Source: Candidatus Thorarchaeota archaeon (GTDB lineage: Archaea > Asgardarchaeota > Thorarchaeia > Thorarchaeales > Thorarchaeaceae). Taken from it: 64,000 nt of DNA. The notes beneath the pieces were generated by a model that was not told the DNA's origin, searched no databases, and saw only the letters and a list, made by a program, of their open reading frames with translations. The translations under genes were made by a program, and so were the position numbers. Positions 7,422-62,143 of this stretch are shown here, in pieces (position 1 is the first letter of the stretch; every line of letters begins with the position of its first letter). The stretch spans positions 79,849 through 143,848 of the forward strand of contig JAWOEX010000010.1 in NCBI GenBank assembly GCA_046482545.1, given 5' to 3'.

Positions 7422-8822
7422 TTGACAAAGAGATTTACTCCCTCCGGGGTAATGCCCGCACTTGTTACACCATTCACTAGACATGGTGATATACATGAAG
7501 AGGGCCTCAAGGAGGTAATAGATTACACTATTGAGAAAGGGTGTACGGGGGTGGTTCCTGCAGGAACCACCGGTGAATTTGTCTACATGCGAACTGAAGA
7601 GAGAAAGAAGTTACTCAAACTGACAGTAGAACATGTGGATGGCCGTGTCCCTGTGGTAGCTGGAACTGGACAGAACAGCACCCGCGCCACAATCAGCCTT
7701 ACAAAGTACGCTGCTGATTTGGGCTGTGATGCAGCTCTGGTTGTTTCACCTTTCTTCTTGCGCCCAGATGATAAAGGGTACTACCAACATTATGCAGATG
7801 TAGCAAGAGAAGGGAATCTTCCTGTAATCCTGTATAATATCCCTCAATGTACCCTTGGGACCCTACAATCCAACGTCGTTCAGGATTTGGCGGATCTCGA
7901 CAATATCGTTGGAATCAAGGATAGTGGAGGGGATATCGGTCATACAATGGAACTAATACAGAAGGTTAGTGACAGAATCCCTGTCCTGATAGGACATGAT
8001 GAGTGCTTCCTCTCAGCAGTATCTGCTGGAGCTAGCGCTGCTATTATGGCTTCAGCAAATATTATGCCACATATCTGGCTGGAAATAATGGAGTGTGTCC
8101 AGAACGGAAACTTCGAGAAAGCACGAAAAATGCAACTGGATGCTCAGACGCTTGCCAGAATAGTCACAAGAAATGGGGGTGCTCCACCTGTGAAGGCTGC
8201 CCTCAAAATGATGGGTATTGAAGCGGGATATTCTCGAATGCCACTTGATTCTGGAGGAACACTTACACGGGAACTGAAGGAAGAAATCAGATTGGAGCTT
8301 GAAAAGCTTGGCCTGATAGAAACTCCAACTAGGTCACCACTTCAGGAAAAGCCTGACGTACGGAAATTAGCTACCGACCTTGGCTTTGAGAATCCCGATT
8401 TTGAAGGGTGTAGATTCGCTACAGCGGCGAATGATACAGTCTCGGTGACTGTTGTTACTGGAAAGAAGAAATCAGCAATTGGAGATTTCTTTGTAAGGCT
8501 ACTCACCACACCCAAACAGGGCTATGAAGGGCTTACCGTTATTCTAGAGCCAAATTTGGCGGTAAAACCGAGCTCATTAATGGTTCCTGCCAGAGGAATA
8601 CAATCCATGCGTCAAGCTTCTCTTTTCTATGGCCCCGTTCAATCCGGTGCTGCTAAGGCGATAGCAGCCACAGTGGAATCTGGTGCTATAAGCGAAGAGA
8701 GAATCGACGACACGTTGATGATTCTAATGCTAGATGTGAACTTGGACTCGCGTGACCGCAGGAAGATAGTCACAGCCACGGAAGAAGTAGTCGCTGAAGC
8801 AATGAGTTCTATTTGGAGCTGA
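7422..8822 (+). CDS. DapA/NAL-family class I aldolase fused to a C-terminal Fae-like domain that lacks the HxxxH motif
   Basis: N-terminus has ALVTPF, PAGTTGEF and the Schiff-base region IVGIKDSGGD. C-terminal ~160 aa aligns to formaldehyde-activating enzyme (LTVILEPNLAVKPSSLMVP, FYGPVQSGAAKAIAATVESGAI) but has no EVAH motif. TTG start. Confidence 0.75.
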   Translation: MTKRFTPSGVMPALVTPFTRHGDIHEEGLKEVIDYTIEKGCTGVVPAGTTGEFVYMRTEERKKLLKLTVEHVDGRVPVVAGTGQNSTRATISLTKYAADLGCDAALVVSPFFLRPDDKGYYQHYADVAREGNLPVILYNIPQCTLGTLQSNVVQDLADLDNIVGIKDSGGDIGHTMELIQKVSDRIPVLIGHDECFLSAVSAGASAAIMASANIMPHIWLEIMECVQNGNFEKARKMQLDAQTLARIVTRNGGAPPVKAALKMMGIEAGYSRMPLDSGGTLTRELKEEIRLELEKLGLIETPTRSPLQEKPDVRKLATDLGFENPDFEGCRFATAANDTVSVTVVTGKKKSAIGDFFVRLLTTPKQGYEGLTVILEPNLAVKPSSLMVPARGIQSMRQASLFYGPVQSGAAKAIAATVESGAISEERIDDTLMILMLDVNLDSRDRRKIVTATEEVVAEAMSSIWS

Positions 8823-8826
8823 GAAA

Positions 8827-10302
8827 ATGAGTGATGATTTTAAGTTTCAAGGTGTCTATCCGGCCCTCGTTACACCTTTTGACGAGGGCGGCGTGAACGC
8901 ATCGCAGTACAAGGGTTTGATTGAGCATTTGATTGGAAGGGGCGCGACTGGAATTGTTCCTTGCGGTACAACCGGTGAGTTTACCAGTATGACTTTTGAT
9001 GAGCGTTTGCAAGCCATCCGAATCGCATGTGAGACAGCTGCGGGACGCGTACCCGTCATGGCTGGTACAGGTGCCCCATACACGGCAGATGCGGTCAAAC
9101 TCACTCGACGAGCAGCTGAATTGGGAGCGGATGCTGCTCTAGTGGTTACTCCATATTTCCTTAAGCCCTCCACAAAGGAAATCTACGAACACTACACGCG
9201 AGTAGCTGAGGCCAGTGACCTCCCCATCTTTCTGTACAATATTCCGCAAGTAACAGGAATCAAGCTGGACTGGAAACTGGTCGATGGCTTACAAGAAATA
9301 GATGGTATTGCTGGCATGAAAGATTCTAGTGGCGATCTGGTTAACCTTACAACCATTCTATTGCGACGCCCTCATGATTTTCAGGTTGTTGTAGGCCATG
9401 ATGAAGTGGCATTTCCTGCTCTTGCGGCGGGTTGTGATGGAGCCATACTCATGAGTGCAAATGTCTTTCCTAATCGATACATTCAGATGCAAAGTGCTCT
9501 GTCAAGAGGGAATCTCAAAGATGCGAAGATTGTGCAAAGGACGATTCAAAAGACTGTACGCCTCCTTGTCAATAAGGGGGGTGCAATCGCAGTCAAAACT
9601 GCATTGAATATGATGGGCATAAATGTTGGAGATGCTCGGAAACCTCTTCTCGAAGGTGATTTGTTTAGTTTTGAGGATCTTGATGAGCTCAGGACATGCT
9701 TAGAGGATTTGCAGCTGATTCCAAGAGGACCTGTGACATTCAAGATGGGCAATCGGGAAATAGTTGCCGAACAATATCCAAAGGCTGCAGGAATTGTTGC
9801 TGATGTTGTTGATGACTTGACACTCCTGCATGGAGAATCTCTGTGCGGTGGTGGTCATGAGGTCGCCCATGTTGATTTGGTGATGGGTATCAAGACAGGT
9901 CCAATGCAACAGGCTTTAGAAACAGCAGATAAGATAGTAAAGGGTTTCCATCAGTCAAACATTATCAAAAATCTTCAGCCAACAACGGTCTTTGCGCCTA
10001 CAGTGAATATCACTGATGAAGCCCACAAAGAAATGGTATATGATGTAGCCGAGAAAGCAGTCGCTGATGCGGTTACCAGAACTGTGACAGATCAAATCAT
10101 ACCCGAGGAACTTGTTCCTGATCTCGTCATTGCGGTTAACGCCTTTGTTCACCCTGCTGCTAATAACAAGCGTAGGGTGCACATCAATAATTTCCGCGCT
10201 GTTCGGCATGCTCTTAGACGCGCTATTGAAGGACGACCTGATATTTCTACAGTCATAGAACAGAAGAACTCATCTCGGCATCCTTTTGCCTATGGTCCAT
10301 AA
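8827..10302 (+). CDS. DapA/NAL-family class I aldolase fused to a complete Fae (formaldehyde-activating enzyme) domain
   Basis: N-terminus has ALVTPF, PCGTTGEF and IAGMKDSSGD. C-terminus has GESLCGGGHEVAHVDLVMG ... AVNAFVHPAANNKRRV ... EQKNSSRHPF, which is canonical Fae. GGAG RBS 8 nt upstream. Lies 4 nt after the paralog. Confidence 0.8.
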   Translation: MSDDFKFQGVYPALVTPFDEGGVNASQYKGLIEHLIGRGATGIVPCGTTGEFTSMTFDERLQAIRIACETAAGRVPVMAGTGAPYTADAVKLTRRAAELGADAALVVTPYFLKPSTKEIYEHYTRVAEASDLPIFLYNIPQVTGIKLDWKLVDGLQEIDGIAGMKDSSGDLVNLTTILLRRPHDFQVVVGHDEVAFPALAAGCDGAILMSANVFPNRYIQMQSALSRGNLKDAKIVQRTIQKTVRLLVNKGGAIAVKTALNMMGINVGDARKPLLEGDLFSFEDLDELRTCLEDLQLIPRGPVTFKMGNREIVAEQYPKAAGIVADVVDDLTLLHGESLCGGGHEVAHVDLVMGIKTGPMQQALETADKIVKGFHQSNIIKNLQPTTVFAPTVNITDEAHKEMVYDVAEKAVADAVTRTVTDQIIPEELVPDLVIAVNAFVHPAANNKRRVHINNFRAVRHALRRAIEGRPDISTVIEQKNSSRHPFAYGP

Positions 10303-13293: not shown

Positions 13294-14358
13294 CTATATC
13301 TCATAAATCCAGCCATATGGATCGTCAGTATGCCCACACTGAATACCTGTGAGATTGTCAAACAGCTTCCGTGAGAGATTGCCTACATATCCATCCGCTA
13401 CCTGATAAGATGTGTTTTCAAAGTAGAGTTCACCCACTGGTGCAATCACAGCAGCTGTTCCAGTCCCGAAAATCTCAAGCACTTTGCCATTCGCGATACC
13501 TTCTATAACTTCGTAAATCGAAATCTTTCGTTCGGTTACATCATAGCCAAAGTCACGCGCCAATTGCAGTACTGAATCGCGGGTTATACCTGGGAGAATT
13601 GTGTCGTTGAGAGGGGGAGTAGCAAGCTCGTCCTCAAAGCGCACAAAAACGTTCATCGTTCCGCATTCTTCAATATACTTGCGCTCAATGGCATCGAGCC
13701 ACAACACCTGTGAGTATCCCTTCTCAGTCGCTTTCTTCGTAGCCAAGAGGCTCGCAGCATAGTTGCTCATCGTTTTAGCTGCGCCCACTCCACCCTTGAC
13801 CGCTCTCGTGTACTTGTCTGAGACATATATGCTGACGGGATTGAATCCCTCTTTGAAGTATGGTCCAACAGGACTCAAGATGACATAGAGCAGATACTGG
13901 TCGGATGGTTTCACACCAAGTTTGGGCTCAATAGCTATCATGGTAGGCCGAATATACAGGGAGGTACCGTGCTCCTCAGGTATCCAATCTCGCTCAATAT
14001 CGATGAGCTTGGTCAGAGCAATGAGTAGCTGCTCGCTATCGACTTCTGGCATGACCATACGTTTGGCTGACCTGTTCAAACGTTTGAGATTCTGACGAGG
14101 ACGGAACAGTAGGACTCGATTCCCCCGCCGGTATGCCTTCATTCCCTCGAAGATACCCTGACCATAATGGAGAACCAATGCAGCAGGACTAAGCTCAAGA
14201 TGAGAATAGGGCCTAATCTGAGGGCGGTGCCATTGGCCGCATCTATATTCCATCATCAACATGTGATCGGAATATACGCTGCCAAAGGTCAAAGCCATCG
14301 GGTCTGTGGGCTTACGTTTTCGCTCATCTTCTGGAACCAGATTAAGATCGATATCCAA
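13294..14358 (-). CDS. ilvE: Branched-chain amino acid aminotransferase (PLP fold type IV)
   Basis: EGMKAYRRGNRVLLFRP, catalytic Lys region and GTGTAAVIAPV motifs. Confidence 0.9.
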   Translation of the reverse strand: MDIDLNLVPEDERKRKPTDPMALTFGSVYSDHMLMMEYRCGQWHRPQIRPYSHLELSPAALVLHYGQGIFEGMKAYRRGNRVLLFRPRQNLKRLNRSAKRMVMPEVDSEQLLIALTKLIDIERDWIPEEHGTSLYIRPTMIAIEPKLGVKPSDQYLLYVILSPVGPYFKEGFNPVSIYVSDKYTRAVKGGVGAAKTMSNYAASLLATKKATEKGYSQVLWLDAIERKYIEECGTMNVFVRFEDELATPPLNDTILPGITRDSVLQLARDFGYDVTERKISIYEVIEGIANGKVLEIFGTGTAAVIAPVGELYFENTSYQVADGYVGNLSRKLFDNLTGIQCGHTDDPYGWIYEI

Positions 14359-26350: not shown

Positions 26351-29017
26351 CTATTGCAGGTAGCCACTGACGTCCTTCAGGTCGTGAGCCTGCAACGAGG
26401 GGGTATTAGCGGCAGCCTCTAGTAGGGTATCGATTACCGAATCTGCGCGTGTTACTTCTGTACAAAGCAGAGCCCGACTCCCAGCGATTTTTGCTACAAG
26501 GTAGGCACCGAATTCTTTCCGGAACGCTGAAACTGATAGAATTGTCTCAATTGGATCCGAGTGGCCCTCTTTGCGCATGCGAAGATATGTAGCAAGTTCC
26601 AATGCCTGATGATAGGGCCGCTTCAAGATGGAACTCCACTTGATTTGGTTTCGGTTCACATTGACAGGTACAACCGGCACATCGTTTTTCTTCAAAATAC
26701 GCGTGGACTTGATGATGTCGCGTACTGGTGTATATCTAGGATGACCTGGGCCTGCAGATTGTTCTAGTGGGATATTGGGCGCAAAATCGGAGAGAAGAAC
26801 AACTAATGGTTGAACTCCTCGATTCCTCATCCGCTCTCGTTTCACAGTCTCAAGTGATTTCATAAGTCCCTCAGCCAAAGGAGTCAATCCTGAAATCCTG
26901 AGCTTTAGAAGAGCACGATATAGACGATTCCAGTTTGTTGTTGGAGCCTGAACCTCAATGGCTCCGCTATCCTTGAAGGCGATAATCCCTACACGATCCT
27001 TGGAACCGCGCGTTTCATCCTCAATTCGTTGCACAATCTCACGAATATGTTTCAGACTTCCTTTGATAGACATACTCACATCTATGACGAGCAGAACTGT
27101 CAGTGGTGTCTTGCCCGAGAATATTCGTTCTCTCAAATCCGATTTTGTAATCTGCAGGTAATCAGTGTCATCAATTTGGCCAGTTCTGGCAACAGCTGCA
27201 ACTAACGACGCAGGAAGATCTATGCTCTGAACCTCCCCTACAGGTATCCGTGATCTTGTGGAGCGACCATGTTGGGCGATTTCCGAAGATTGCATCGAAC
27301 CCACAGAACGAGTCGAACGATTTTTTCTAGACCATGCACCGGAAGTGACTCTGGACCGCACCAGTGACCTCTTCTGAATCTCTTCCTTCTCAAAAACAGG
27401 TTCACCAGCATCAAGGTCAGGAGTCTTAACGAAAAACGTATTTTCGAGGTCCAAAGGTGGTTGACGGATGTCTGACTTGGATCCAATTACTTCAGATTTC
27501 TCCGTCTCACTGTATTGCCCAGTGGCTATCCCCCATTCATCTCCCGCTTGTGGTTCTGCCTTGCCGGGTTCGACTACATCAATACCTGCTGCAGGACCAC
27601 TCTTTCGTTTCTGCATGGTCCGAAGCCACCGTCGGATAGTTAGAGCAATGAGTGGGACATAGATTACTGCGTTCAAAACGAGTAGCGGCGGAGGAGGAAA
27701 GACTCCAATCCCAGATCCAAAGAGAATATTGAGGGGACTCAGGTAAATCCAAGCAAAGAAACCAAAGAAAGCAACCATCATGACAACAAGGATAGTTCCT
27801 CTAATCGGAAGGCCTCTAGGATTCCTTACTTTCGACGTTTTTTTTTTGCCTTCTTGGCCTCCCCATGCGGCAAACGAAGACTGTCTTCCGAATTTCCACC
27901 CGCTCTTTCGTTCATCAGTCTCTTCTGAGGAAGCTGGCACTTCGGTGGGCGATTTCCTTTCATCGTCAGTCTTGGTGATGTCCGCAGCCCGAGTAATTGC
28001 TTTATCAATCTCGGAAGGAGACGGAGGTTCCAAGAGACCGCCGCGCCGTGTCCTGTGACTAAGCGCCAGTTGAGCTCCAAGCTTCATATCTTCCAAAGTA
28101 ACGTATTTCCGTCCTTGGAAGGCTGCGTGGGTTATAGCCGCCTTACTGATAACAATATCAGGTCTGACTCCATCAACCTCTAGAGCATCACAAGCCATTG
28201 CTATTGCCCGTAATTTGGATTCACTAAATACAATTCCGTCAAGAATATCTCTAGCTTTGACAATTCGCTCCCGCAGCTGTGCTTGCAGCTCGGACCACTT
28301 TTCTCTAAATTCCTTAGGATTCTGCTCAAATTCAAGATTCCGTCGAACTAATTGCATCCGTTCTTCAATTGAATGCCCACCTCCCACAGATACATGCAAA
28401 GGGAATCGATCCAACAATTGAGGTCTGAGCTCTCCTTCTTCTGGATTCATAGAACCCATCAATACAAAATCTGCAGGATGGGAGACGGATATACCTTCAC
28501 GCTGTACAACATTAACTTTCGTTGCTGCCGCGTCAAGTAAATCGTCAACAAGGTGATCAGGAAGCAGATTGACCTCATCAACATACAGAATATTCTGATT
28601 GGCCTCTGCCAGAATTCCCGGCTGCAATGCCCGAATTCCTTCTTGGAGTATACGTTCTATATCGAGAGAGCCCACAAGGCGATCTTCGGTTGTCGAAAGC
28701 GGGAGATTAACGACGCGCATCTTCCGTTTTTCAGTCGAGAGAGACTCACCTGATTCAACCCTTGCTCGACAATCAGCACAGAGGAGTTCCTCATTCAAAG
28801 GGTTGCAGCTAAAGGGGCAATCGCTTACGACTTCCACTTTAGGCAACAGGTCGGCTAACGCCCTGACAATAGTTGTCTTGCCGGTACCCTTGGCTCCAGA
28901 AACCAACACGCCTCCAATTCGCGGATTGACACCATTCAGAATCAGAGCAATCTTTAGTCGTTCCAGTCCCACTAGAGCGGTGAATGGTAGAACAGACCTT
29001 CCGCGAGGCTCACTCAC
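26351..29017 (-). CDS. ChlI/BchI-type AAA+ ATPase fused via a linker containing two TM helices to a ChlD-type vWA domain
   Basis: N-terminus LPFTALVGLERLKIALILNGVNPRIGGVLVSGAKGTGKTT...CPFSCNP...ILYVDEVNLL. Mid-protein TM segments GTILVVMMVAFFGFFAWIYL / VFPPPPLLVLNAVIYVPLIALTI. C-terminal vWA with MIDAS LLVIDVSMSIKG...GLTPLAEG. Confidence 0.8.
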   Translation of the reverse strand: MSEPRGRSVLPFTALVGLERLKIALILNGVNPRIGGVLVSGAKGTGKTTIVRALADLLPKVEVVSDCPFSCNPLNEELLCADCRARVESGESLSTEKRKMRVVNLPLSTTEDRLVGSLDIERILQEGIRALQPGILAEANQNILYVDEVNLLPDHLVDDLLDAAATKVNVVQREGISVSHPADFVLMGSMNPEEGELRPQLLDRFPLHVSVGGGHSIEERMQLVRRNLEFEQNPKEFREKWSELQAQLRERIVKARDILDGIVFSESKLRAIAMACDALEVDGVRPDIVISKAAITHAAFQGRKYVTLEDMKLGAQLALSHRTRRGGLLEPPSPSEIDKAITRAADITKTDDERKSPTEVPASSEETDERKSGWKFGRQSSFAAWGGQEGKKKTSKVRNPRGLPIRGTILVVMMVAFFGFFAWIYLSPLNILFGSGIGVFPPPPLLVLNAVIYVPLIALTIRRWLRTMQKRKSGPAAGIDVVEPGKAEPQAGDEWGIATGQYSETEKSEVIGSKSDIRQPPLDLENTFFVKTPDLDAGEPVFEKEEIQKRSLVRSRVTSGAWSRKNRSTRSVGSMQSSEIAQHGRSTRSRIPVGEVQSIDLPASLVAAVARTGQIDDTDYLQITKSDLRERIFSGKTPLTVLLVIDVSMSIKGSLKHIREIVQRIEDETRGSKDRVGIIAFKDSGAIEVQAPTTNWNRLYRALLKLRISGLTPLAEGLMKSLETVKRERMRNRGVQPLVVLLSDFAPNIPLEQSAGPGHPRYTPVRDIIKSTRILKKNDVPVVPVNVNRNQIKWSSILKRPYHQALELATYLRMRKEGHSDPIETILSVSAFRKEFGAYLVAKIAGSRALLCTEVTRADSVIDTLLEAAANTPSLQAHDLKDVSGYLQ

Positions 29018-29100: not shown

Positions 29101-30249
29101 ATGACCTCACGAATGACTCATCTTCACTGTCCAAACTGTGGAAAGAAATACAAGGCTGAACCCGGAATTTCATACTGCTCATGCGGCTCTCCCATTTTTG
29201 CACAATATGATATCAAAGCTGTTTCGGAGGATATTGCAAACAATGATTTCCCCGGAAGGGAGAATTCGATGTGGAGATATGCCAGTCTGTTACCTGTTGA
29301 CTCGCGAAGAGCTGTCACATTGGGTGAAGGTTGGACTCCTTTACTTTCATCAAAACGTATCCATGAATACATGGGCCTAGAATCGGTCTATATCAAGCAA
29401 GAATCGCAAAACCCTACGTTGAGCTTCAAAGATCGTGGACTCAGTGCCGCTATCTCCAAACACACTCAACTTCGGAGCAACCATTTTGTAATTCCATCAG
29501 CAGGTAATGCAGCCATATCCATGTCAGCTTATGCTGCAGCTGCTGGGGCTCTAGCGACAGTTTACATGCCTGAAAATACACATGAGTCATTTTTCCAAGC
29601 TTGTTCCCAATATGGAACAGAAGTCATTGCTGTGAAAGGAACTATCGCAGATTGCGGTACAGCGGTACAGAAAAATGAGGGGGTTTGGACCGATATCTCA
29701 ACAACAAAAGAGCCATTTCGGGTGGAAGGTAAGAAAACACTAGGTTTCGAAATATGTGAACAGATGAACTGGTCACTTCCTGAAGTGATTATCTGTCCTA
29801 CCGGCGGAGGAACCGCACTTCTCGGTATATGGAAAGGAATACAGGAGCTTGAGAATGTGGGACTCATCGATGGGACCCGGCCCCGTATGTTTGCAGCGCA
29901 GAGTGATGGTTGTGCGCCCGTCGTCCGAGCGTTCAAAGCCGGATCCAAGACAATTGAGCCTTGGGAAGATAGTGAGACAAAGGCCTTAGGTCTGCGTGTT
30001 CCAAAACCATTCGCAGATGAATTGATTCTAGATATACTGCGAGAGTCAGAAGGAGGAGCAGTAGCAGTAGATGAAAAATCGATTGGAAAAACTAGACGAT
30101 TAGTAGCAGAAGACGAGGGTATTGATATGTGCCCCGAAGCTGCGGTGGCTATCGCTGGAGCAAAGAAACTTGTTGAACAGAGAAACATAGACAAGAATGA
30201 AGATGTCGTGGTTCTGAACACCGGTTCAGGGGTCAGATATCCAAGCTAG
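29101..30249 (+). CDS. thrC: Threonine synthase (archaeal type with N-terminal zinc ribbon)
   Basis: CPNCGKKY...CSCGS ribbon, then PLP motif SFKDRG. Confidence 0.9.
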   Translation: MTSRMTHLHCPNCGKKYKAEPGISYCSCGSPIFAQYDIKAVSEDIANNDFPGRENSMWRYASLLPVDSRRAVTLGEGWTPLLSSKRIHEYMGLESVYIKQESQNPTLSFKDRGLSAAISKHTQLRSNHFVIPSAGNAAISMSAYAAAAGALATVYMPENTHESFFQACSQYGTEVIAVKGTIADCGTAVQKNEGVWTDISTTKEPFRVEGKKTLGFEICEQMNWSLPEVIICPTGGGTALLGIWKGIQELENVGLIDGTRPRMFAAQSDGCAPVVRAFKAGSKTIEPWEDSETKALGLRVPKPFADELILDILRESEGGAVAVDEKSIGKTRRLVAEDEGIDMCPEAAVAIAGAKKLVEQRNIDKNEDVVVLNTGSGVRYPS

Positions 30250-30887
30250 GTTTTATTTGGCAGGTGGTCAAGAATAAATCTCAAATCATTCTCTTTTATT
30301 ACAACGTCAGCTGCTTCTGCTACTTCGTCATCTTCCGGACAAAACGCTATTGAAAGTCCCACATGAGAAAAAGCGCTGACATCATTTTTCCCATCACCTA
30401 CGTATGCGGTTTGTTCTAGTGGAACAGCAAAGCGATTAGCGATTTGTTGGATTAGACTACCCTTCTCCCCCCATTCGACACGCACATCCACTTCACCTGT
30501 AATCTTACCATCCTCGTGTAGTAAGCGATTTGTCATAACACAGTCTATGCCTAAACGATTTCCGACATGTTCTGCTACTATATCTAACCCTCCAGATATG
30601 ATGGCCAACTCAGCCCCCGCATCCTTGAGAGCTTCAACTGTCTCCATCGCCCCCGGAGTCAAGTCGGATGTCTTCGCTAATTCTGCTGCATCTTCAATTT
30701 TTTTGCCTTTCCATAATGATGCATCTAGAGTTGCCCATTGTTTATAGTTAATATCACCAGCGAAGTACCGATTGAAATACGCCTTACCTTCAGCTTGGGT
30801 TCCAAAATGCTCGTGCAGTCTCCACCAGATAGAGGAATGGGTTGTAAGAGTGCCATCAACATCAAACACTACAAGGCGTATTGTCAT
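30246..30887 (-). CDS. serB: Phosphoserine phosphatase-like HAD hydrolase
   Basis: LVVFDVDGTLT motif I and GDGKNDVSAF motif III. Confidence 0.8.
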   Translation of the reverse strand: MTIRLVVFDVDGTLTTHSSIWWRLHEHFGTQAEGKAYFNRYFAGDINYKQWATLDASLWKGKKIEDAAELAKTSDLTPGAMETVEALKDAGAELAIISGGLDIVAEHVGNRLGIDCVMTNRLLHEDGKITGEVDVRVEWGEKGSLIQQIANRFAVPLEQTAYVGDGKNDVSAFSHVGLSIAFCPEDDEVAEAADVVIKENDLRFILDHLPNKT

Positions 30888-30918
30888 TTATTATCCCGTA
30901 CCAAATCACAAATCAGTA

Positions 30919-31569
30919 TTATGAACTTCGCTCTCGTTCAGTGCGTGCTTCTTCTTCCAACTCTAGTAGAAGCTCCTCAACCCTATTAGAAGCAGCCTCA
31001 TTTCGTTGCTTCACAGCCGCCTGTTGCTTCTCGACCGATGGAACAGCAGTTTTTTTCTCCATAAGAACTTCGGCTTCAATATTGCTCAGCCGTTTCTCAA
31101 TCTGTTCTTCTTCCGCAATAGTTGTTCCTGACCCAACTAAATCCTCTGATAGGAGCTCACTCGATATGGACACTCGCTCCAGAGAATCTGAGAGTTTATC
31201 CATTTCTTCCTGAATTTCAGCAGGTGAAAGCATATCCCGAGCTTGATTCAATGCCCGGTTTGCAGTGCGAAGGGTTTTGAGAATCCTGGTCTGATCGCTA
31301 GATTCTTCTATGCTCATCAATGCAGATTGAAGAGTCTGGAATTGCTGCTGATACCTACCAAGTCTCTTCTCAAGGTCAACCGCTACTCCAAGATGAGTTC
31401 TGGCTACGCTTTTGTTTCCTTGTTTTACAGCCTTCTTCGCTGCACGATGCTCCTCGGAAATACGGGTTTCGAGCTTCCTTATGCGGAGAGTGATAGCGTT
31501 CATAGTCCCTTTAATCTCTAGAATTCCTCTCTCGGCATCAACTTCCTTCTTGCCGCTTAGGAAACCCAT
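30919..31569 (-). CDS. ESCRT-III / Snf7 (CHMP)-family protein
   Basis: MGFLSGKK N-terminus. KKAVKQGNKSVARTHL...DLEKRL...QTLQSALMSIEE...TLRTANRALNQ...MLSPAEIQEEMDKLSD aligns with the Snf7 core. Acidic C-terminal tail. Confidence 0.75.
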   Translation of the reverse strand: MGFLSGKKEVDAERGILEIKGTMNAITLRIRKLETRISEEHRAAKKAVKQGNKSVARTHLGVAVDLEKRLGRYQQQFQTLQSALMSIEESSDQTRILKTLRTANRALNQARDMLSPAEIQEEMDKLSDSLERVSISSELLSEDLVGSGTTIAEEEQIEKRLSNIEAEVLMEKKTAVPSVEKQQAAVKQRNEAASNRVEELLLELEEEARTERERSS

Positions 31570-31658
31570 AATGTGCACCAGTCCGGTTCTACAACCTGTC
31601 TCCTCAGCGAGAGCATTTAAACGATTGGACTATCCAGACATATAACGGAAGTCTCAGC

Positions 31659-32477
31659 ATGAGAATTATTGACACTCTCCGAAAGGCAGTAGAATCCGCC
31701 CGTGAATTGATCCTTGACAACATTGAGAGAGCACGTGTAAAAACAGGGAAAAGGAATCCTTTTGGTGACCAGACCCTCGCTCTTGACAAGGAAACTGAAG
31801 ATATAGTCATCAATGTGCTCCAAGAATCTGACACAACTTTTTCGATTATGACTGAAGAACAGGGTATTGTCGAGCAAGACAGCCGGCCTGACTATATTGC
31901 TATCGTCGACCCCATTGATGGTTCTGCGAACCTAGAAAGAGGCATACCCATTTGTTCAATTGGTATTTCGGTTTTGCCCTATGGCGAAAGACTCACGACA
32001 GATGACCTCGAAGTGAGCATCATCCAGTCATACTTTACCAATGAAACCTATGTGGCAATGAAGGGTAAAGGTGTGACCCTCAACGGCAAGCAGATAAGAC
32101 CAAGGGAGAAAAGCCCGATTGCGGAGACGATAATCTCATACGATACAAAAAAGCAGTGGGATGAAGAATTCTCTGCGGCTTCTTTGCGGGTACTGAAAAA
32201 TGTCTTTGATATGCGCCGCAGTGCAAGCAATCTGCTCGACCTGTGCTGGACAGCCGCAGGAGGCCTTGATGCGATGCTCGATCTTCGCGGTGTCTTGCCA
32301 ATTGTGCATGTCTCTGGCACCCACATGGTTACTGAGGCTGGAGGATTCGTTGTTGATTTCCAAGGATCCAGATTGAAGCTCCCAATAGATTACGACGAGA
32401 GAATGAGTTTCGTCGCGGCGTCGAATGAAATATTGGCTAGAAATCTTTTAGCTCTTTGGCAGGGCACTAAGAGCTGA
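31659..32477 (+). CDS. suhB: Inositol monophosphatase / fructose-1,6-bisphosphatase family
   Basis: DPIDGS motif and the C-terminal WD..AG region. Confidence 0.85.
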   Translation: MRIIDTLRKAVESARELILDNIERARVKTGKRNPFGDQTLALDKETEDIVINVLQESDTTFSIMTEEQGIVEQDSRPDYIAIVDPIDGSANLERGIPICSIGISVLPYGERLTTDDLEVSIIQSYFTNETYVAMKGKGVTLNGKQIRPREKSPIAETIISYDTKKQWDEEFSAASLRVLKNVFDMRRSASNLLDLCWTAAGGLDAMLDLRGVLPIVHVSGTHMVTEAGGFVVDFQGSRLKLPIDYDERMSFVAASNEILARNLLALWQGTKS

Positions 32478-37335: not shown

Positions 37336-37504
37336 TCAGGGCTTCACCCGTGTGGCCTACAGGAAAAACGTGAGGGTCGTTATGGCTACTAAAACCTATC
37401 GGATTCACAATATTCATGAATGATGAATCCAAGAATAACAGAAATCTTACAAAATCCTAGAAGAGTCGAGTACAAAAGTGCAAGATAACTGTAAAATTTT
37501 CTGC

Positions 37505-40181: not shown

Positions 40182-41048
40182 TCATACTAGGTATATCAAT
40201 GTGGCCAAATGAGCAGCCCAAGGAAACATACCTAAAATTGCAGGTATTGGAATAGCTGGGAAGATCTTCCCTTTCTGCGCCAGTACGGTCAAATTAATCA
40301 CGACTCCCAGGAAGGATAACGCCATTGAACTTAGCCAGACATGAAACGGGAAGAAAAGAAGTGCATGCGATGAGATAAGAGAATAGGCGATGAAATCCCC
40401 AACCCCGACTACGGTATCCTTGGATTTTATTCTTGTGTAGTCGAAAGGATCCTCTCCCACATTTCCAGTCATCTGTGCGGACCGAACAACAGGAGAATAC
40501 CGAGTAAGGAAGTAGTCTTCAGCTACAATGGTGAATACAAGAACAAACATTGTCGGGGTCGCCAAAGTGGCAGCGAGGAAAGTGCCAAAGACTGCACCAT
40601 AGAACGCGACGTATATATTTCGTATTGAAGTAGGAATCGCATCTACTACTACCAAGATAATGGATAACATAGAAATCCCTATCGAGAGAACCATTACAAG
40701 ACCCTCCAAAATTGTCTGACTCCCCTTGAATAATATCAGAAGAAAGGCTTGACCTAAAAACAGAGAGACAAAGAAGATGATGGGCGATACAACAAATGCT
40801 ACAACTATCTTCCGTGCACTTCGACTACGCCTGTGAAGTATCCAGAACAGTGAGAATACAACCAATGAACCTATGACTGTCGACACTAGGGCTTGCAAGA
40901 CAAGCTCCAGAGGGGTGAACGAATCTCCATTCCCTATTGTCCGCCCAATCAGAGATGTGTTCCGCACAACATAAGCCAAACCTGAGCCAACAAGAAGGGG
41001 AAGAGATGAAATTGTTACTCCTATCAAGTGATGTCTATCCAGTCTCAT
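40182..41048 (-). CDS. Polytopic membrane protein with presenilin/SPP-like GxGD and PAL-like motifs (possible A22 intramembrane aspartyl protease homolog)
   Basis: VVGVGDFIAYSL (compare presenilin GLGDFIFYS) and FPAIPIPAILG about 50 residues downstream. Roughly 9 TM helices. Confidence 0.5.
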   Translation of the reverse strand: MRLDRHHLIGVTISSLPLLVGSGLAYVVRNTSLIGRTIGNGDSFTPLELVLQALVSTVIGSLVVFSLFWILHRRSRSARKIVVAFVVSPIIFFVSLFLGQAFLLILFKGSQTILEGLVMVLSIGISMLSIILVVVDAIPTSIRNIYVAFYGAVFGTFLAATLATPTMFVLVFTIVAEDYFLTRYSPVVRSAQMTGNVGEDPFDYTRIKSKDTVVGVGDFIAYSLISSHALLFFPFHVWLSSMALSFLGVVINLTVLAQKGKIFPAIPIPAILGMFPWAAHLATLIYLV

Positions 41049-54254: not shown

Positions 54255-54638
54255 ATGAGCGAGAGCGAAACTCAGATTGCTATCGAGTTCGAAGACGGGA
54301 CGACACTCAACGGCATACTCGATAGGGTAAGAGGGCCTATGATTACCGAGGAAATCATCTCACGTCTCCCAATCCAAACGAGAGCTGCGATGATTAGAGG
54401 GGAAATGAGAATGAATCTGGATATCGGTAAGGGAAATATCAAACCAACGAAGGAAGTAGCACGGGGAGACATTGCATATATGCCACTGGGGGATTCACTT
54501 GTGATTTATCTTGAGGACTCCAGAACATTCAGCAAGGTTAATGTAATTGGCACCATAGAACCCAGCAGTCACAACAAATTGGATAAGCTAAGAGAGATAA
54601 GAAGGGGGAGTCAGGTTGTCTTAAGAACCCCTTCTTAG
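54255..54638 (+). CDS. Cyclophilin-like-fold small protein (PF04126-like; hypothetical)
   Basis: GDIAYMPLGDSLVIYLEDSR...KVNVIG pattern. Confidence 0.4.
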   Translation: MSESETQIAIEFEDGTTLNGILDRVRGPMITEEIISRLPIQTRAAMIRGEMRMNLDIGKGNIKPTKEVARGDIAYMPLGDSLVIYLEDSRTFSKVNVIGTIEPSSHNKLDKLREIRRGSQVVLRTPS

Positions 54639-55186
54639 AGCCTTTGGATATTCCGAAGAAGTGTTTCATTCTTATCAATTTGTTTTTCAGAAGGATCTAC
54701 AACGAAGCCAGATTCGTGGCATTCAATCATGACTTCCACGCCTGAGTCCTTCACAGCCTTGAATCCACTGTTAGACAAAGGTCTAACTCTCAGCTGTTTT
54801 GTATCGAACTCTATTCTGTCATGAGCCTGTTGAATCTCGGCATCCTTTCGGATCTTCGACTTTGCGATACGGAGCTGTTGTTTGAGCTGGGCAACCTCTA
54901 CTTGAAGCTCCTTCTTTTGCTTCGTCACCTTCTCCAATTCTTCTTTTGTTGCCTCATATTTGTCTTTTTCAACAAACCGATCTGATTCATCAACCCAGGT
55001 TATCGTAGTTCCATCAAACCGCCGATTGGTCTCCACCTTGCCCATCGCTTTCAGAATAGCGATGACATCATATATTCTCCTCTTGGGAGTCTCCAATCGT
55101 TCGGCAAGTTGGTCACTACGTATACCATCTTCGCCTTCTTCTTTTATTACATCAATACTGCGTTCTGCAATTTCCACTAGTTTCAC
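54635..55186 (-). CDS. Winged-helix (KRRIYD-type, E2F/DP-like or TrmB-like) DNA-binding protein with coiled-coil and C-terminal domain
   Basis: SDQLAERLETPKRRIYDVIAILKAMGKVETNRRFDGTTITWVD followed by a K/E/Q heptad region. Confidence 0.6.
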   Translation of the reverse strand: MKLVEIAERSIDVIKEEGEDGIRSDQLAERLETPKRRIYDVIAILKAMGKVETNRRFDGTTITWVDESDRFVEKDKYEATKEELEKVTKQKKELQVEVAQLKQQLRIAKSKIRKDAEIQQAHDRIEFDTKQLRVRPLSNSGFKAVKDSGVEVMIECHESGFVVDPSEKQIDKNETLLRNIQRL

Positions 55187-55454: not shown

Positions 55455-56795
55455 ATGAGTAAAGAGAAAATCAAAGTAATTATTATGGGTGCGGCTGGAC
55501 GTGATTTTCATAATTTTAACTCCTTCTTCAGAGGAGATTCTCGCTATGAAGTAGTCGCGTTCACTGCACAGCAGATTCCAGGAATCGGAGATAGGGAATA
55601 CCCACCCGAGCTTTCAGGCGACTTGTATCCGGATGGTATCAAAATATACCCCGAAGAAAAGCTACCTGAACTGGTTGAGAAATTCGACGTTGACCAATGC
55701 ATTCTAGCATACAGCGACCTTTCTTACGACTACGTAGGCCACAAAATAGCTTGGGTCAACTCTCTAGGTCCAGATATCCGCTTTATGGGACCAGAACTTA
55801 CGATGTATGAAAGTGAGAAGCCAGTGGTCGCAGTCTGTGCTGTTAGAACCGGATCCGGTAAGAGCCAGACATCAAGGCGTGTAAATCAGATATTCGTCGA
55901 CATGGGATTGACACCTATCAACATCCGTCATCCTATGCCATACGATCCGGACTTGACCATGCAGATTGCTCAGCGATATGAGAAGCTTGAGGACATGGAC
56001 AAATATCGATGCACCATTGAGGAGCGCGAAGAATATGAGCCCATTATCAATATGGGTGTCACTTTGTATGCAGGTGTTGACTATGAAAAGATTCTTCGTC
56101 AGGCGGAAGACGAAGACCCTGACGTAATAACTTGGGATGGTGGCAATAACGACTTCCCATTCTACAAGCCTGACCTCCTTATAGTCCTGACAGATCCGCA
56201 CAGACCAGGCCATGAAATTTCCTACTATCCAGGAGAGACTAACCTCAAGATGGCTGATGTCGTAATCATCAATAAGGTAGAGACTGCAGACTACGAGGAT
56301 GTTCAGACGGTTAGGGAAAACATCATGAAGGCAAACCCAGATGCCACGATAATCGAAGCGGCCTCACCAATATCTGTCGAAGAACCAAGCAAAATCAAAG
56401 GTAAGCGAGTTATCGTTGTCGAGGATGGACCAACAGTCACTCACGGCAATATGCCTTATGGTGCAGGTTACGTTGCAGCACGAAGATTCGGTGCAGAAAT
56501 AGTTGATCCAAGACCATTTGCGGTTGGAAGCATAAAAGACACCTTCGAGAAATACACACATCTTGAGAATGTCCTACCAGCCATGGGTTATGGCGAGGAA
56601 CAAATGAAAGAACTGCAAAAGACTATTGAGAAGGCTGATGTGGATGCCGTCGTTGTAGGGACACCAATCGACCTAGCGAGGCTCATCGACATCGACAAGC
56701 CCAATACACGGGTCAGATACGACCTCCAGGAAATTGGCAAGCCTGACCTCGAGGACATCCTTGCTGAGTTTGTCGAAAAACAAGGTATCAAGTAG
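55455..56795 (+). CDS. Cyclic 2,3-diphosphoglycerate synthetase-like protein (Rossmann-like N-terminus plus P-loop-like domain)
   Basis: IIMGAAGRDFHNFN N-terminus and VRTGSGKSQTS P-loop-like segment. Family assignment is from memory of the cDPGS family and is tentative. Confidence 0.5.
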   Translation: MSKEKIKVIIMGAAGRDFHNFNSFFRGDSRYEVVAFTAQQIPGIGDREYPPELSGDLYPDGIKIYPEEKLPELVEKFDVDQCILAYSDLSYDYVGHKIAWVNSLGPDIRFMGPELTMYESEKPVVAVCAVRTGSGKSQTSRRVNQIFVDMGLTPINIRHPMPYDPDLTMQIAQRYEKLEDMDKYRCTIEEREEYEPIINMGVTLYAGVDYEKILRQAEDEDPDVITWDGGNNDFPFYKPDLLIVLTDPHRPGHEISYYPGETNLKMADVVIINKVETADYEDVQTVRENIMKANPDATIIEAASPISVEEPSKIKGKRVIVVEDGPTVTHGNMPYGAGYVAARRFGAEIVDPRPFAVGSIKDTFEKYTHLENVLPAMGYGEEQMKELQKTIEKADVDAVVVGTPIDLARLIDIDKPNTRVRYDLQEIGKPDLEDILAEFVEKQGIK

Positions 56796-56939
56796 TGCTA
56801 CTACGAGTGAACATGAGAACAGGTAAATCCTGTTTTCTTGTTCCCTGTTCTCTTTTTTTAGTATCTAATGTAATGCACACAAGATACCCTTTTAGATGGT
56901 GACTTCATCGACAGCATAGACCTACACGAGGAAGCTACA

Positions 56940-57317
56940 ATGGCAGAAATACCAATGGCTGATGCTGATGAACCGAGTGACAATAAGGGCCGTCCTCTTG
57001 GAATAACAGTTTTGGCAATTCTACAGATGATTGGTGCGCTGATAACATTAGGCCTGGGCGTGACAATCATGGCTTTCGGATCCATCTCGCCGTTCTATGG
57101 AATCATGGGAGGAATCTTGGTAATTTTTGGGCTTATTTCATTCTACGTTGGCTATGGTTTATGGACCATGAAATCGTGGGCTTGGAAGCTAGCCATGATA
57201 GTCAACATCATCAACATAGTAATTGGTGTGATAACCCAAAACTGGGTAGGTATCATCATTCCGCTAATCATAGTTATCTATCTGAACCAAGAAGACATCA
57301 AGCAGCGATTCAGATAA
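56940..57317 (+). CDS. Small membrane protein (3 TM; hypothetical)
   Basis: Hydrophobic helices (ITVLAILQMIGALITLGLGV and others). Confidence 0.5.
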   Translation: MAEIPMADADEPSDNKGRPLGITVLAILQMIGALITLGLGVTIMAFGSISPFYGIMGGILVIFGLISFYVGYGLWTMKSWAWKLAMIVNIINIVIGVITQNWVGIIIPLIIVIYLNQEDIKQRFR

Positions 57318-57492
57318 TCAGAGCGAGAACAAGCTTATTCCGGGCAAAAAGCTCGGCCCCTCTTTTTATTTCAGCAATTCTTTGTACTAGTGCATAGGCT
57401 AGTCAAATACTGTTACAATGCTGACTTGGTTCGCCATCACCGTCATGGCAGGACCCTTCTTGGGATTCAGCCGCGACATATTCTGGAGCAGG

Positions 57493-59085: not shown

Positions 59086-59419
59086 TGTTCGACAAGCTCC
59101 GAAAGTTTCTACGTCAAGGTTGAGAGTTGATTCAACTAGTGAAAATAAAGATTGTGTGCCAAGTAGTTTGTCGAATTTACATCATGGGGTACCAACCAAT
59201 CTGAATCTATCTTCTTGCAACGTATAAGAGGCATACGGATAATATAAGAACACTCCATACTATCTAGGAAAGGGTTTGTTTTGGGAATATCGTACACGCT
59301 GAAAAGAAAAAGGTACGGATAAATCCTGCAGGTGAATCTCAAAACAGATTCCAAACACTATAATACACGAAACTATTATGAGTTTATCAAATCATGAGCA
59401 ATCATGGGGCGATTGATCA

Positions 59420-59848
59420 TTGTCCACCAGCGATGAAAAACTGCAAAACGCGATAATTCAGCTAGATCAGGGTAATGATAAGAAAGCGTTCAACCTGTTC
59501 AAGGAAGTGTACGAAGAAAGGCATGACAAGCTGATTACAAAGGTGCAGGAAAATCCTAAGTCGCCCACGCTTATGCTGGATTCCCTGTACATGGTTCACG
59601 CCCTAGTATGGCTGAGAGTAGCAGAAGCAGGAGTCAACAAAGAAAAAAGTATGGAACTCCTTGGCAAAGCAGTGGGAACCATTGAATCAGCCAGAGCCGC
59701 CTTTGGACCACTCGTTACTGGTTTGGCGCAATGGGCTCAGGAAAAGAACATACAAGTGGTGCACAAGAAAGCAAGAAGCTTGCTTGAAATCACCAAAGAT
59801 TTGGAAGACATGACCAAGAAGGCATTAGAAGCGCGACGTAAGATGTAA
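59420..59848 (+). CDS. Hypothetical alpha-helical protein
   Basis: ORF with TTG start. No motif recognised. Confidence 0.4.
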   Translation: MSTSDEKLQNAIIQLDQGNDKKAFNLFKEVYEERHDKLITKVQENPKSPTLMLDSLYMVHALVWLRVAEAGVNKEKSMELLGKAVGTIESARAAFGPLVTGLAQWAQEKNIQVVHKKARSLLEITKDLEDMTKKALEARRKM

Positions 59849-59954
59849 CCTGTGATGGAAACGTCTAAAAAACAGTAAAACTCGGGCGCTTTCACAAAGT
59901 CCATAAATATAAGGCAAACGCAAAATGCAATGTCTGAAAAGTGGAGGTCTATAA

Positions 59955-60203
59955 TTGATTACGGCTTTTGTCAGCATGTCAGTCACGCCCGGTTCTGATG
60001 AAGAACTGATTACTGAATTTGCTAGAGATGATATCGTTTCAGAAGCATGGCTCACCACCGGCGAATTCGATGTCCTTCTTATTCTAGAGGCAGCTGATCA
60101 AGAGGAAGTAAATAGCTACGTGAATAACACCGTACGCAATGTCGAGGGTGTAATCCGGGTAGTCGTTGCATTTGGCATAGAATCCGTGACGGACAGTGAT
60201 TAA
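59955..60203 (+). CDS. Stand-alone Lrp/AsnC-type RAM (ligand-binding) domain protein
   Basis: ITAFVSMSV...EFDVLLILEA...VEGVIRVVV beta-alpha-beta-beta-alpha-beta pattern. Confidence 0.55.
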   Translation: MITAFVSMSVTPGSDEELITEFARDDIVSEAWLTTGEFDVLLILEAADQEEVNSYVNNTVRNVEGVIRVVVAFGIESVTDSD

Positions 60204-61243: not shown

Positions 61244-61457
61244 CGAAGGATGATTCTAGATTGGAGATAAAAAGGGTATCTCTGAATGTGAGTTTGCCAA
61301 GAAACAAAAATAATTTCACTCTGACCCTTCTGCGAGGCAGCGAGGCGTCTTAGGGAGCCCTCGGAGATATGACATACACCGTAAACCTATCCGGGCAAGT
61401 GATATATAGCCAAGAGGTTAAACCTATTCAGGCACAGGCAAGTGGAGATAGAGTGAC

Positions 61458-62075: not shown

Positions 62076-62143
62076 AGATATCCTTTAAGCAGTCTGATGC
62101 TGTATTCTTGATTTAAACAAATGTGATCGTTCTAGAACGACTC

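Follow-up and report, generated by a model that had tools for sequence, protein, structure and literature searches.

No prokaryotic proteins are more closely related to the membrane-scission machinery of eukaryotes than the ESCRT-III proteins of Asgard archaea, and it is this kinship that makes Asgard ESCRT-III matter. The Thorarchaeota protein ThorAB25_07240 has been published as ESCRT-IIIB, or Vps20/32/60-like (Hatano et al. 2022, PMC9192718; Lu et al. 2020, PMC7240154), and published maximum-likelihood trees group Asgard ESCRT-IIIB, that of Thorarchaeota included, with CHMP4–7 (Lu 2020, PMC7240154; Souza 2025, PMC11804906). Asgard Vps20/32/60 proteins, including that of Thor_AB_25, carry proline-rich MIM2-like motifs; the same study modelled the binding energy of the Thor_AB_25 Vps4 MIT domain with Vps20/32/60 and assayed purified Thor_AB_25 proteins by ITC (Lu et al. 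2020, PMC7240154). Membrane polymerization and deformation have been shown for the Heimdall ortholog only, and membrane arrays of ESCRT-IIIB recruit ESCRT-IIIA (Souza et al. 2025, PMC11804906).

The gene described here lies in a 64-kb stretch of Candidatus Thorarchaeota DNA, hereafter the window. The best explanation of our results, to which we assign a probability of about 90%, is that it encodes a B-type ESCRT-III subunit (ESCRT-IIIB, Vps20/32/60-like, CHMP4–7-like) of a Thorarchaeota-lineage Asgard archaeon. The coding sequence occupies positions 30919..31569 on the minus strand, stop codon included, and was assigned to ESCRT-IIIB (Snf7-family, B-type) from its open reading frame, Pfam, BLASTP and AF2/Foldseek. 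The original prediction had described this frame, and the ORF list shows it to be genuine: it encodes 216 aa from an ATG, starts with MGFLSGKK and contains every peptide that had been quoted from it (KQGNKSVARTHL, MSIEESS, TLRTANRALNQARDML and EEMDKLSD). A longer form of the frame (30919..31578, minus strand) begins with GTG. Because that codon sits in a conserved GGTG Shine–Dalgarno-like motif and all orthologs start with MGFLSGKK, we ruled out the GTG and take the ATG at 31569 as the start.

The region upstream of the ATG is itself conserved. The GGTG motif (31576..31579, minus strand), 7–10 nt 5′ of the ATG, begins at −12 to −9 in all 42 unique ortholog upstream regions and exactly at −10 in 39 of them. 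A TATA-box-like element, TTTAAAT (31615..31621, minus strand), lies 46–52 nt 5′ of the ATG; TTAAA[AT] begins between −58 and −49 in 42/42 unique ortholog upstream regions and in 0/126 control windows. Its position and conservation suggest that the element acts as a promoter. We found no tRNA genes or Rfam families anywhere in the 64-kb window.

The gene had also been predicted to stand alone, with no Vps4, ESCRT-II or CdvA nearby, and the window bears this out. A Pfam scan of ~57 ORFs of at least 120 aa across the 64 kb revealed no Vps4/MIT, EAP30, Vps25, Vps28 or CdvA, and tblastn of reference Asgard proteins against the whole window matched only the ESCRT-IIIB gene, with no other ESCRT or ubiquitin genes. 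The remaining ESCRT machinery of related Thorarchaeota always lies at a separate locus. A homolog search with the Thor AB_25 Vps4 listed only matches of at least 80% identity. Scanning contigs with the same Vps4 gave 56 Vps4 loci with the SB/ESCRT-IIIA/Vps4/Vps25/Vps22 block; these come from related Thorarchaeota, none being matched to the MAG of the window, and ESCRT-IIIB occurs in none of them (0/56). Conversely, genes of the block are absent from all 41 Thorarchaeota ESCRT-IIIB loci (0/41). The two sites are ~322 kb apart on a 669-kb contig (SHMX01000001.1), and they share one contig in isolate BC. Two candidates for a closer match to the window were rejected: a Vps4 locus taken as same-lineage from its tetranucleotide similarity (L052), which its Vps4 search placed in a different near-singleton lineage, and a candidate Vps4 of the window's MAG (P0266), which belongs to a different MAG, JBHLRR01. 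The separation of ESCRT-IIIB from the SB/ESCRT-IIIA/Vps4/Vps25/Vps22 cluster appears universal in Thorarchaeota, and the stand-alone position of the window gene is the normal layout of this lineage. Although published locus tags and synteny figures already show this separation, our counts make the modest addition of quantifying the split layout, which is the reverse of that in Lokiarchaeum.

ESCRT-IIIB is flanked by two phosphatase genes. The original prediction had named these neighbors as serB and IMPase, and both are as described. The downstream gene (30246..30887, minus strand), 31 nt 3′ of ESCRT-IIIB, encodes a HAD-IB phosphoserine-phosphatase-like hydrolase by Pfam HAD/Hydrolase and NCBIfam matches, and scores slightly under the equivalog cutoffs for SerB and archaeal PSP and far over the HAD-IB subfamily cutoff (TIGR01491, 146.7 against 151.9; SerB, 134.2 against 144.2; HAD-IB subfamily, 127.6 against 45). 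It lies directly 3′ of ESCRT-IIIB in 37/37 ortholog loci with room for it. The gap between the two genes measures 8–53 nt across orthologs (median of 37), usually contains its own GGTG and holds a run of at least five T in only two of 38 cases. Judged by this spacing and by the missing terminator, the HAD gene is probably co-transcribed with ESCRT-IIIB, which would itself be transcribed from its own promoter as the first gene of a bicistronic unit. On the other side, a divergent inositol-monophosphatase/FBPase-family gene (31659..32477, plus strand), identified by Pfam and NCBIfam, shares an 89-bp intergenic region with ESCRT-IIIB. It matches Pfam Inositol_P with 104 bits and the NCBIfam bifunctional FBPase/IMPase model with 155 bits, under the cutoff of 264, and it occupies the adjacent upstream position, in divergent orientation, in 36 of the 37 ortholog loci with room. 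A threonine synthase gene is also adjacent.

The conserved IMPase/ESCRT-IIIB/HAD-IB trio is possibly new, and it is the only observation here that may be. The invariant pairing with two phosphatase genes and ESCRT-IIIB's own promoter-like and Shine–Dalgarno-like architecture are likewise a modest addition, one that could guide expression or co-regulation work in Thorarchaeota cultures or metatranscriptomes. The trio also invites a different account of the gene, as a neofunctionalized ESCRT-III paralog that is independent of the ESCRT-I/II/Vps4 cluster and forms a module with both adjacent phosphatases, for example by linking membrane remodeling or repair to the provision of serine and inositol head groups for lipids, or to phospho-regulation. 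Consistent with such a module, the trio is kept in 36–37 of 37 loci, persists at protein identities of 42–57% and, at one locus (L126), despite rearrangement of its surroundings; ESCRT-IIIB and the HAD gene, so close together and with no evident terminator between them, may form an operon; and ESCRT-IIIB is never beside Vps4. We nevertheless consider neofunctionalization very improbable. The whole 20-kb neighborhood is broadly syntenic across Thorarchaeota, so that the phosphatase linkage may be mere inherited gene order, and the neighbors resemble ordinary genes of amino-acid and sugar-phosphate metabolism. The Thorarchaeota loci examined hold only one B-type and one A-type gene, which leaves no candidate but ESCRT-IIIB for the canonical IIIB function, and the AB_25 ortholog has published Y2H interactions with canonical ESCRT partners as well as Vps4 MIT binding analyses.

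A real functional coupling, in which ESCRT-IIIB detached from the ESCRT cluster would have become fixed with the divergent IMPase gene and the co-transcribed HAD-IB gene, is in our estimate unlikely. It could take two forms: the remodeling initiator might be co-regulated with production of the serine and inositol head groups of the anionic lipids that it binds, or ESCRT-IIIB assembly might be under phosphatase control. The alternative is that the trio reflects inherited gene order only.

On the identity of the protein, the original prediction had offered two readings, a dispersed ESCRT-III paralog and a PspA/Vipp1-like protein; the first stands and the second falls. When the Snf7 (PF03357) and PspA_IM30 (PF04012) profiles of Pfam are compared, Snf7 matches residues 16–179 (profile positions 3–166 of 171) with 76.2 bits against a gathering cutoff of 27.3 (E of 3.1e-21), and PspA_IM30 gives no match at E≤1. 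A phmmer search of the PDB returned Heimdall AB_125 ESCRT-IIIB first (6e-12) and then Snf7, Shrub, CHMP1B and CHMP3, and a profile search returned ESCRT-IIIB at 2.6e-13 and Snf7 at 6.6e-6; both yielded ESCRT-III proteins only, with no PspA or Vipp1 chain at E≤1–10. Foldseek likewise places only ESCRT-III structures among its first matches, the best being the Asgard ESCRT-IIIB filament 9ftl (E of 1.9e-4), with PspA/Vipp1 ranking far below. NCBIfam has no ESCRT-III model, and we discarded its ‘PspA’ match as a coiled-coil artefact: it concerns pneumococcal surface protein A, an unrelated protein, and reaches 21.5 bits where the cutoff is 850. A bacterial-style membrane-stress protein of the PspA/Vipp1 type, rather than a eukaryote-like ESCRT-III, might be suspected because JGI automatic annotation calls many orthologs ‘phage shock protein A’ and because PspA/Vipp1 have the ESCRT-III superfamily fold in common with it, as seen in weak Foldseek matches to 7abk (E of 0.14) and 6zvr (E of 0.19). 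Against the profile and PDB search results above, and with Asgard ESCRT-IIIB and Snf7 as the top structural and sequence matches, we regard its probability as negligible, and the HMM comparison already refutes it.

Within ESCRT-III, the assignment to the B type follows the published Asgard references. The same protein, with 100% identity, is already deposited at NCBI under the name ‘Snf7 family protein’ from a Candidatus Thorarchaeota MAG, and studies of interaction and binding have already drawn on its AB_25 ortholog. Our homolog search recovered more than 100 orthologs, nearly all of them from Thorarchaeota. In BLASTP against published ESCRT-IIIB proteins, it shows 55% identity to that of Thor over the full length (E of 3e-83), with E values of 2e-13 for Heimdall and 1e-4 for Loki; against published ESCRT-IIIA, the values are 0.19 (Thor), 0.70 (Loki) and 9.9 (Heimdall). 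A neighbor-joining tree places the window protein in the Thor IIIB clade with 100% bootstrap and Heimdall IIIB as its sister; inside the clade, it pairs with a protein of WJIL01 (P0004, 80% identity), and these two branch basally to the rest of Thor IIIB. This tree, built without eukaryotic sequences, recovers no single B-type clade because Loki IIIB groups with the A side; it supports placement at the Thor and Heimdall levels only, and the deep B-type assignment rests on the published phylogenies. By sequence, the window protein is the ortholog of ThorAB25_07240 and is distinct from ESCRT-IIIA. An A-type subunit (ESCRT-IIIA, Vps2/24/46-like) or a division protein of the TACK CdvB kind would share the helical core common to all ESCRT-III, and CHMP1B, CHMP3 and CdvB structures are among the Foldseek matches, but we give this reading next to no weight in view of the BLASTP contrast between IIIA and IIIB, the separate IIIA gene that adjoins Vps4 in 53 of 56 Thor loci, an AF2 model that is entirely helical with no C-terminal winged-helix domain, and a window from which CdvA and CdvC are absent.

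The predicted architecture of the protein is that of the ESCRT-III all-helical core, with a long α1–α2 hairpin and then shorter helices α3 to α5/6. The AF2 model (mean pLDDT of 72.9) comprises six helices (residues 6–49, 53–89, 93–113, 116–146, 151–174 and 179–215), with a pLDDT of ~81–93 in the hairpin, ~46–76 from residue 91 on and the lowest values in linker regions 141–150 and 171–190. Charge is distributed asymmetrically: residues 1–113 have a pI of 10.4 and a net charge of +9, and residues 114–216, which include the acidic C-terminal tail claimed earlier, have a pI of 4.4 and a net charge of −13. The protein therefore has the basic N-terminal half and acidic (putatively autoinhibitory) C-terminal half that are characteristic of ESCRT-III.

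Four short elements stand out in an alignment of 49 orthologs (A1), from which we read the invariant residues. In the N-terminal MGFLSGKK motif (codons 31546..31569, minus strand), M1, F3, L4, G6 and K8 are invariant, and an M-G-[FWL]-L-like start is also found in the ESCRT-III references from Loki and Heimdall; by analogy with the N-terminal insertion motif of Snf7, it may be an α0-like membrane-insertion element. EEQIEKRLSNI (residues 154–164; codons 31078..31110, minus strand), found by regex as a MIM1-type-like pattern, forms the first part of helix α5 and is followed by a conserved EAE[VI]L[LM]EK stretch. Orthologs keep [IV][DE][RK]xL[DE]xMEAE here, with L161, E165, A166 and E167 invariant, and the region aligns with IDEQLAQLEAEM of Heimdall ESCRT-IIIB. 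The proline-containing MIM2-like motif AVPSV (residues 175–179; codons 31033..31047, minus strand) lies in the linker of low pLDDT that joins helices 5 and 6 and is a putative docking site for the Vps4 MIT domain; most orthologs have VLPPL at this site, the window protein has one proline, and P177 is invariant. Finally, alignment and AF2 define an acidic leucine-rich C-terminal helix (residues 196–212, RVEELLLELEEEARTER; codons 30934..30984, minus strand), within AF2 helix 179–215, in which L201, L204, E205, A208 and E211 are invariant and which has the top hydrophobic moment among the segments compared.

The most likely function of the protein is that of a putative initiating ESCRT-III subunit, by transfer from orthologs that are 25–55% identical, namely from the biophysics of Heimdall ESCRT-IIIB and from two-hybrid and ITC work on Thor AB_25. 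Soluble ESCRT-IIIB would be autoinhibited by its acidic C-terminal half and brought to anionic membranes by its basic α1–α2 hairpin and MGFLSGKK, with nucleation probably by ESCRT-II Vps25. It would then open and polymerize into filament arrays, beginning membrane deformation, and recruit ESCRT-IIIA, leading to a tubulated or constricted membrane. The Vps4 ATPase would extract ESCRT-IIIB, its MIT domain docking on the AVPSV MIM2-like motif and the flanking C-terminal helices.

Among known systems, PspA/Vipp1 (PF04012) and TACK CdvB are the more distant relatives: they have the same ancient ESCRT-III superfamily fold, but the window protein has no detectable PspA profile match and, unlike CdvB, no winged helix, and its gene has no adjacent CdvA or CdvC. 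Eukaryotic B-type subunits (Snf7/Vps32/CHMP4 and Vps20/CHMP6) resemble it in Snf7 family membership, basic hairpin, acidic, putatively autoinhibitory tail and MIM2-like proline motif, and its N-terminal Met-Gly followed by hydrophobic and basic residues recalls the membrane anchors of Vps20 and Snf7. Identity to the eukaryotic proteins is, however, only ~19–24%, and a single B-type gene here stands against four eukaryotic subfamilies. We know of no N-myristoylation system or Bro1/ALIX partners in archaea. The closest solved structure by sequence, profile and Foldseek is ESCRT-IIIB of Heimdallarchaeota AB_125 (PDB 9ftl/9ftm), which has its helices in the same order and carries the same C-terminal IDxxLxxLEAE...LP motif, at only ~25% identity; its gene lies inside the ESCRT cluster beside IIIA and Vps4 (locus tags 14010–14030), whereas the window gene is stand-alone. 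ThorAB25_07240 is the nearest counterpart, a full-length ortholog with the same MGFLSGKK start, C-terminal motif order and similar length, and it too is encoded off the SB/IIIA/Vps4/Vps25/Vps22 cluster (its locus tag is 07240; those of the cluster are 08990–09030); the window protein differs as a member of a divergent sub-lineage, with AVPSV for VLPPL and slightly fewer residues in the linker that precedes the final helix. Lokiarchaeum GC14_75 also has an A/B two-paralog system with one paralog away from the Vps4/Vps25/Vps22 cluster, but there the arrangement is reversed: ESCRT-IIIA (Lokiarch_16760) is dispersed and IIIB (37480) is clustered.

The gene occupies positions 30919–31569 of the minus strand and encodes a 216-residue protein that begins MGFLSGKK; this product contains all the peptides quoted in the original prediction, whose coordinates also hold. 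An ORF listing had extended the frame to 30919–31578 by taking a GTG at 31578 as the start. Because this GTG is part of a conserved upstream GGTG motif and orthologs begin MGFLSGKK, sequence conservation indicates that the true start is the ATG at 31569.

An NCBI entry with exactly this sequence (100% identity) is named "Snf7 family protein [Candidatus Thorarchaeota archaeon]", and the protein's orthologs, more than 100 clusters at 50–57% identity, are nearly all from Thorarchaeota MAGs and metagenomes. In BLASTP comparisons against the Asgard proteins used experimentally by Hatano et al. (2022, Supplementary Data 1; PMC9192718), ThorAB25_07240, labelled ESCRT3B, aligns over 217 residues with 55% identity (E = 3e-83), followed by the ESCRT3B proteins of Heimdall (2e-13) and Loki (1e-4). 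An A-type (ESCRT-IIIA) identity is rejected by the same comparison, in which the three ESCRT3A references score E = 0.19 or worse. The original prediction had also proposed a phylogenetic placement. In a neighbor-joining tree, the protein and an 80%-identical homolog (P0004) lie at the base of a Thorarchaeota ESCRT-IIIB clade with 100% bootstrap support, whose sister is Heimdall ESCRT-IIIB; that tree contains no eukaryotic sequences and does not resolve the position of Loki ESCRT-IIIB, and we therefore take the deeper B-type placement from published maximum-likelihood trees, in which Asgard Vps20/32/60 (ESCRT-IIIB) groups with eukaryotic CHMP4–7 (Lu 2020, PMC7240154; Souza 2025, PMC11804906). 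These sequence comparisons support the dispersed ESCRT-III paralog of the original prediction and narrow it to the ESCRT-IIIB of a Thorarchaeota archaeon, a gene that is already annotated and whose ortholog has already been studied.

The other reading on offer, a PspA/Vipp1-like membrane-remodelling protein, is ruled out at the levels of sequence, profile and fold. The Snf7 domain (PF03357) covers residues 16–179 and, at 76.2 bits, exceeds its gathering score of 27.3 bits; PspA_IM30 has no match in the protein at E ≤ 1. Among all PDB sequences, Heimdallarchaeota AB_125 ESCRT-IIIB matches best (6e-12), ahead of yeast Snf7, Drosophila Shrub, CHMP1B and CHMP3. A search with a profile built from 49 orthologs ranks them alike (ESCRT-IIIB 2.6e-13, Snf7 6.6e-6), and PspA and Vipp1 are absent from the matches of both searches. 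An AlphaFold2 model made from the ortholog alignment (mean pLDDT 72.9, about 81–93 in the hairpin) predicts six helices, at residues 6–49, 53–89, 93–113, 116–146, 151–174 and 179–215. Its top Foldseek match in the PDB is an Asgard ESCRT-IIIB filament (9ftl, E = 1.9e-4), followed by CHMP1B, CHMP2A/CHMP3, Loki CHMP4–7 rods and Snf7, and PspA/Vipp1 structures rank lower, none with an E-value better than 0.14. Charge is split along the protein in the classic ESCRT-III way, with a basic N-terminal half (pI 10.4, net +9) and an acidic C-terminal half (pI 4.4, net −13) that includes the predicted tail. Many orthologs (P0014, P0025, P0033 and others) carry the automatic JGI/IMG name "phage shock protein A", their sole recorded Pfam domain being PF03357; this inconsistency could mislead readers toward a PspA interpretation.

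The ortholog alignment reveals several conserved features. Within the N-terminal MGFLSGKK, M1, F3, L4, G6 and K8 are invariant. The α5 segment follows the consensus I[DE][RK]xL..MEAE[VI]LLEK (EEQIEKRLSNIEAEVLMEK in the window protein), one proline is invariant in a linker that reads VLPPL in most orthologs but AVPSV here, and the last helix is rich in acidic residues and leucine (RVEELLLELEEEA...). Proline-rich MIM2-like motifs have been described in Asgard Vps20/32/60 by Lu et al. (2020, PMC7240154), who for Thor_AB_25 modelled how the Vps4 MIT domain binds Vps20/32/60 and included purified Thor_AB_25 proteins in their ITC assay. [quoted passage not shown] 2025, PMC11804906). By analogy with this behavior, the window protein is most likely the initiating B-type subunit. 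Its basic hairpin and N-terminal motif would bring it to anionic membranes, where ESCRT-II may nucleate it; it would then polymerize and hand over to ESCRT-IIIA, and Vps4 could recycle it through the MIM2-like region.

The gene is flanked, much as originally predicted, by two phosphatase-family genes. Downstream on the same strand lies a HAD-IB phosphoserine-phosphatase-like hydrolase (30246–30887, minus strand), which clearly passes the HAD-IB subfamily model and scores 146.7 against TIGR01491 (cutoff 151.9) and 134.2 against SerB (cutoff 144.2); upstream and divergent is an inositol-monophosphatase/FBPase-family (IMPase) gene (31659–32477, plus strand). Thorarchaeota share a wider synteny of Mrp/ApbC, IMPase, ESCRT-IIIB, HAD, threonine synthase, Mg-chelatase-like AAA/VWA, AIR-synthase-related and SurE genes, of which the IMPase/ESCRT-IIIB/HAD trio (30246–32477 here; also L083, L085 and L088–L126 among related loci) is the most tightly kept part. 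Where the locus leaves room, HAD directly follows ESCRT-IIIB on the same strand in 37/37 cases and the divergent IMPase gene directly precedes it in 36/37; the trio is intact even in L126, although the block from threonine synthase to SurE lies on the other side there. The gap between ESCRT-IIIB and HAD is only 8–53 nt (median 37; 31 in the window), which suggests an operon. It usually contains a GGTG of its own, and runs of at least five T occur in only 2/38 gaps; the two genes are probably co-transcribed.

Upstream of ESCRT-IIIB, TTAAA[AT] begins at −58 to −49 in 42/42 unique sequences, compared with 0/126 equal-sized control windows, and GGTG begins at −12 to −9 in all 42. The window has a TATA-like TTTAAAT at 31615–31621 (minus strand, about −52) and an SD-like GGTG at 31576–31579 (minus strand, at −10, that is, 7–10 nt upstream of the ATG). 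From these motifs we infer a dedicated archaeal TATA-type promoter and a leader only about 20 nt long that carries the SD. Both this promoter architecture and the conserved trio are new but minor findings whose meaning is uncertain.

Other genes in the window merit mention. A single 888-aa ORF (26351–29017, minus strand) joins a Mg-chelatase/MoxR-like AAA domain to a C-terminal VWA domain, with a hydrophobic segment between them; its equivalents in L083 and L085 are two genes (AAA, 405–426 aa; VWA, 475–477 aa), and the single ORF may reflect a fusion specific to this lineage or a difference in assembly or gene calling. Tandem paralogs at 7422–8822 and 8827–10302 (plus strand), each a DHDPS-family domain fused to a formaldehyde-activating-enzyme (Fae) domain, adjoin a gene with a metallo-beta-lactamase fold and one for an aldehyde:ferredoxin oxidoreductase, accompanied by its ferredoxin. 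Two genes are eukaryote-flavoured: one for a presenilin-like membrane protein (40182–41048, minus strand), syntenic in L085, whose PF01080 score of 26 bits falls short of the cutoff of 34, and one for a protein with an E2F/DP winged-helix domain (54635–55186, minus strand), whose PF02319 score of 35.6 bits exceeds the cutoff of 25.7. Within 55455–63431, ORFs of 446, 125, 530, 142, 205, 255 and 136 aa lack Pfam matches at E ≤ 1e-5; only ORF 60539–61243 in this stretch has a hit, to PF18489 "Alpha_Helical".

The gene stands apart from the rest of the ESCRT machinery, as the original prediction had noted. When about 57 ORFs of at least 120 aa from the whole 64-kb window were scanned against Pfam, none matched MIT/Vps4, EAP30/Vps22, Vps25, Vps28 or CdvA, and with the full set of reference Asgard ESCRT and ubiquitin proteins as tblastn queries only ESCRT-IIIB was hit, so the stand-alone observation holds. 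Scanning GTDB species-representative genomes for Thorarchaeota Vps4 yielded 56 Thorarchaeota-type loci in 55 assemblies; within ±10 kb of Vps4 lie SB (52), ESCRT-IIIA (53), Vps25 (54) and Vps22 (54), the few missing genes falling at contig ends, and ESCRT-IIIB lies near none of the 56. Precomputed Pfam labels at one locus read Snf7, MIT-AAA-Vps4_C, ESCRT-II, EAP30. Conversely, SB, ESCRT-IIIA, Vps4, Vps25 and Vps22 are absent within ±10 kb of all 41 ESCRT-IIIB loci (2 NCBI, 39 metagenomic). On the 669-kb contig SHMX01000001.1, ESCRT-IIIB lies at 111.9–112.5 kb and Vps4 at 434.5–435.7 kb, and AB_25 locus tags separate ESCRT-IIIB (07240) from SB/ESCRT-IIIA/Vps4/Vps25/Vps22 (08990–09030) by about 175 genes (PMC9192718). 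Separation from the Vps4 cluster is thus the norm across the Thorarchaeota lineage, an arrangement that had been depicted previously. The 56 related loci and the conserved synteny around ESCRT-IIIB suggest that the window's own MAG would carry such a cluster. The Vps4 of one locus (L052, CAZYLT010000010.1) is a deep singleton: apart from one JGI relative at 92%, no other Thorarchaeota Vps4 exceeds 75% identity to it; the tetranucleotide composition of L052 correlates with that of the window at r = 0.96, yet it represents another lineage.

Which ESCRT-III paralog is dispersed varies among Asgard lineages. The layout of Thorarchaeota, with ESCRT-IIIB detached, is reversed in Lokiarchaeum, where ESCRT-IIIA is dispersed (locus tag 16760) and ESCRT-IIIB lies in the cluster (locus tags 37450–37480), whereas neither is dispersed in Heimdall AB_125, which keeps both paralogs inside the cluster (14010 and 14020) (Hatano 2022, PMC9192718).
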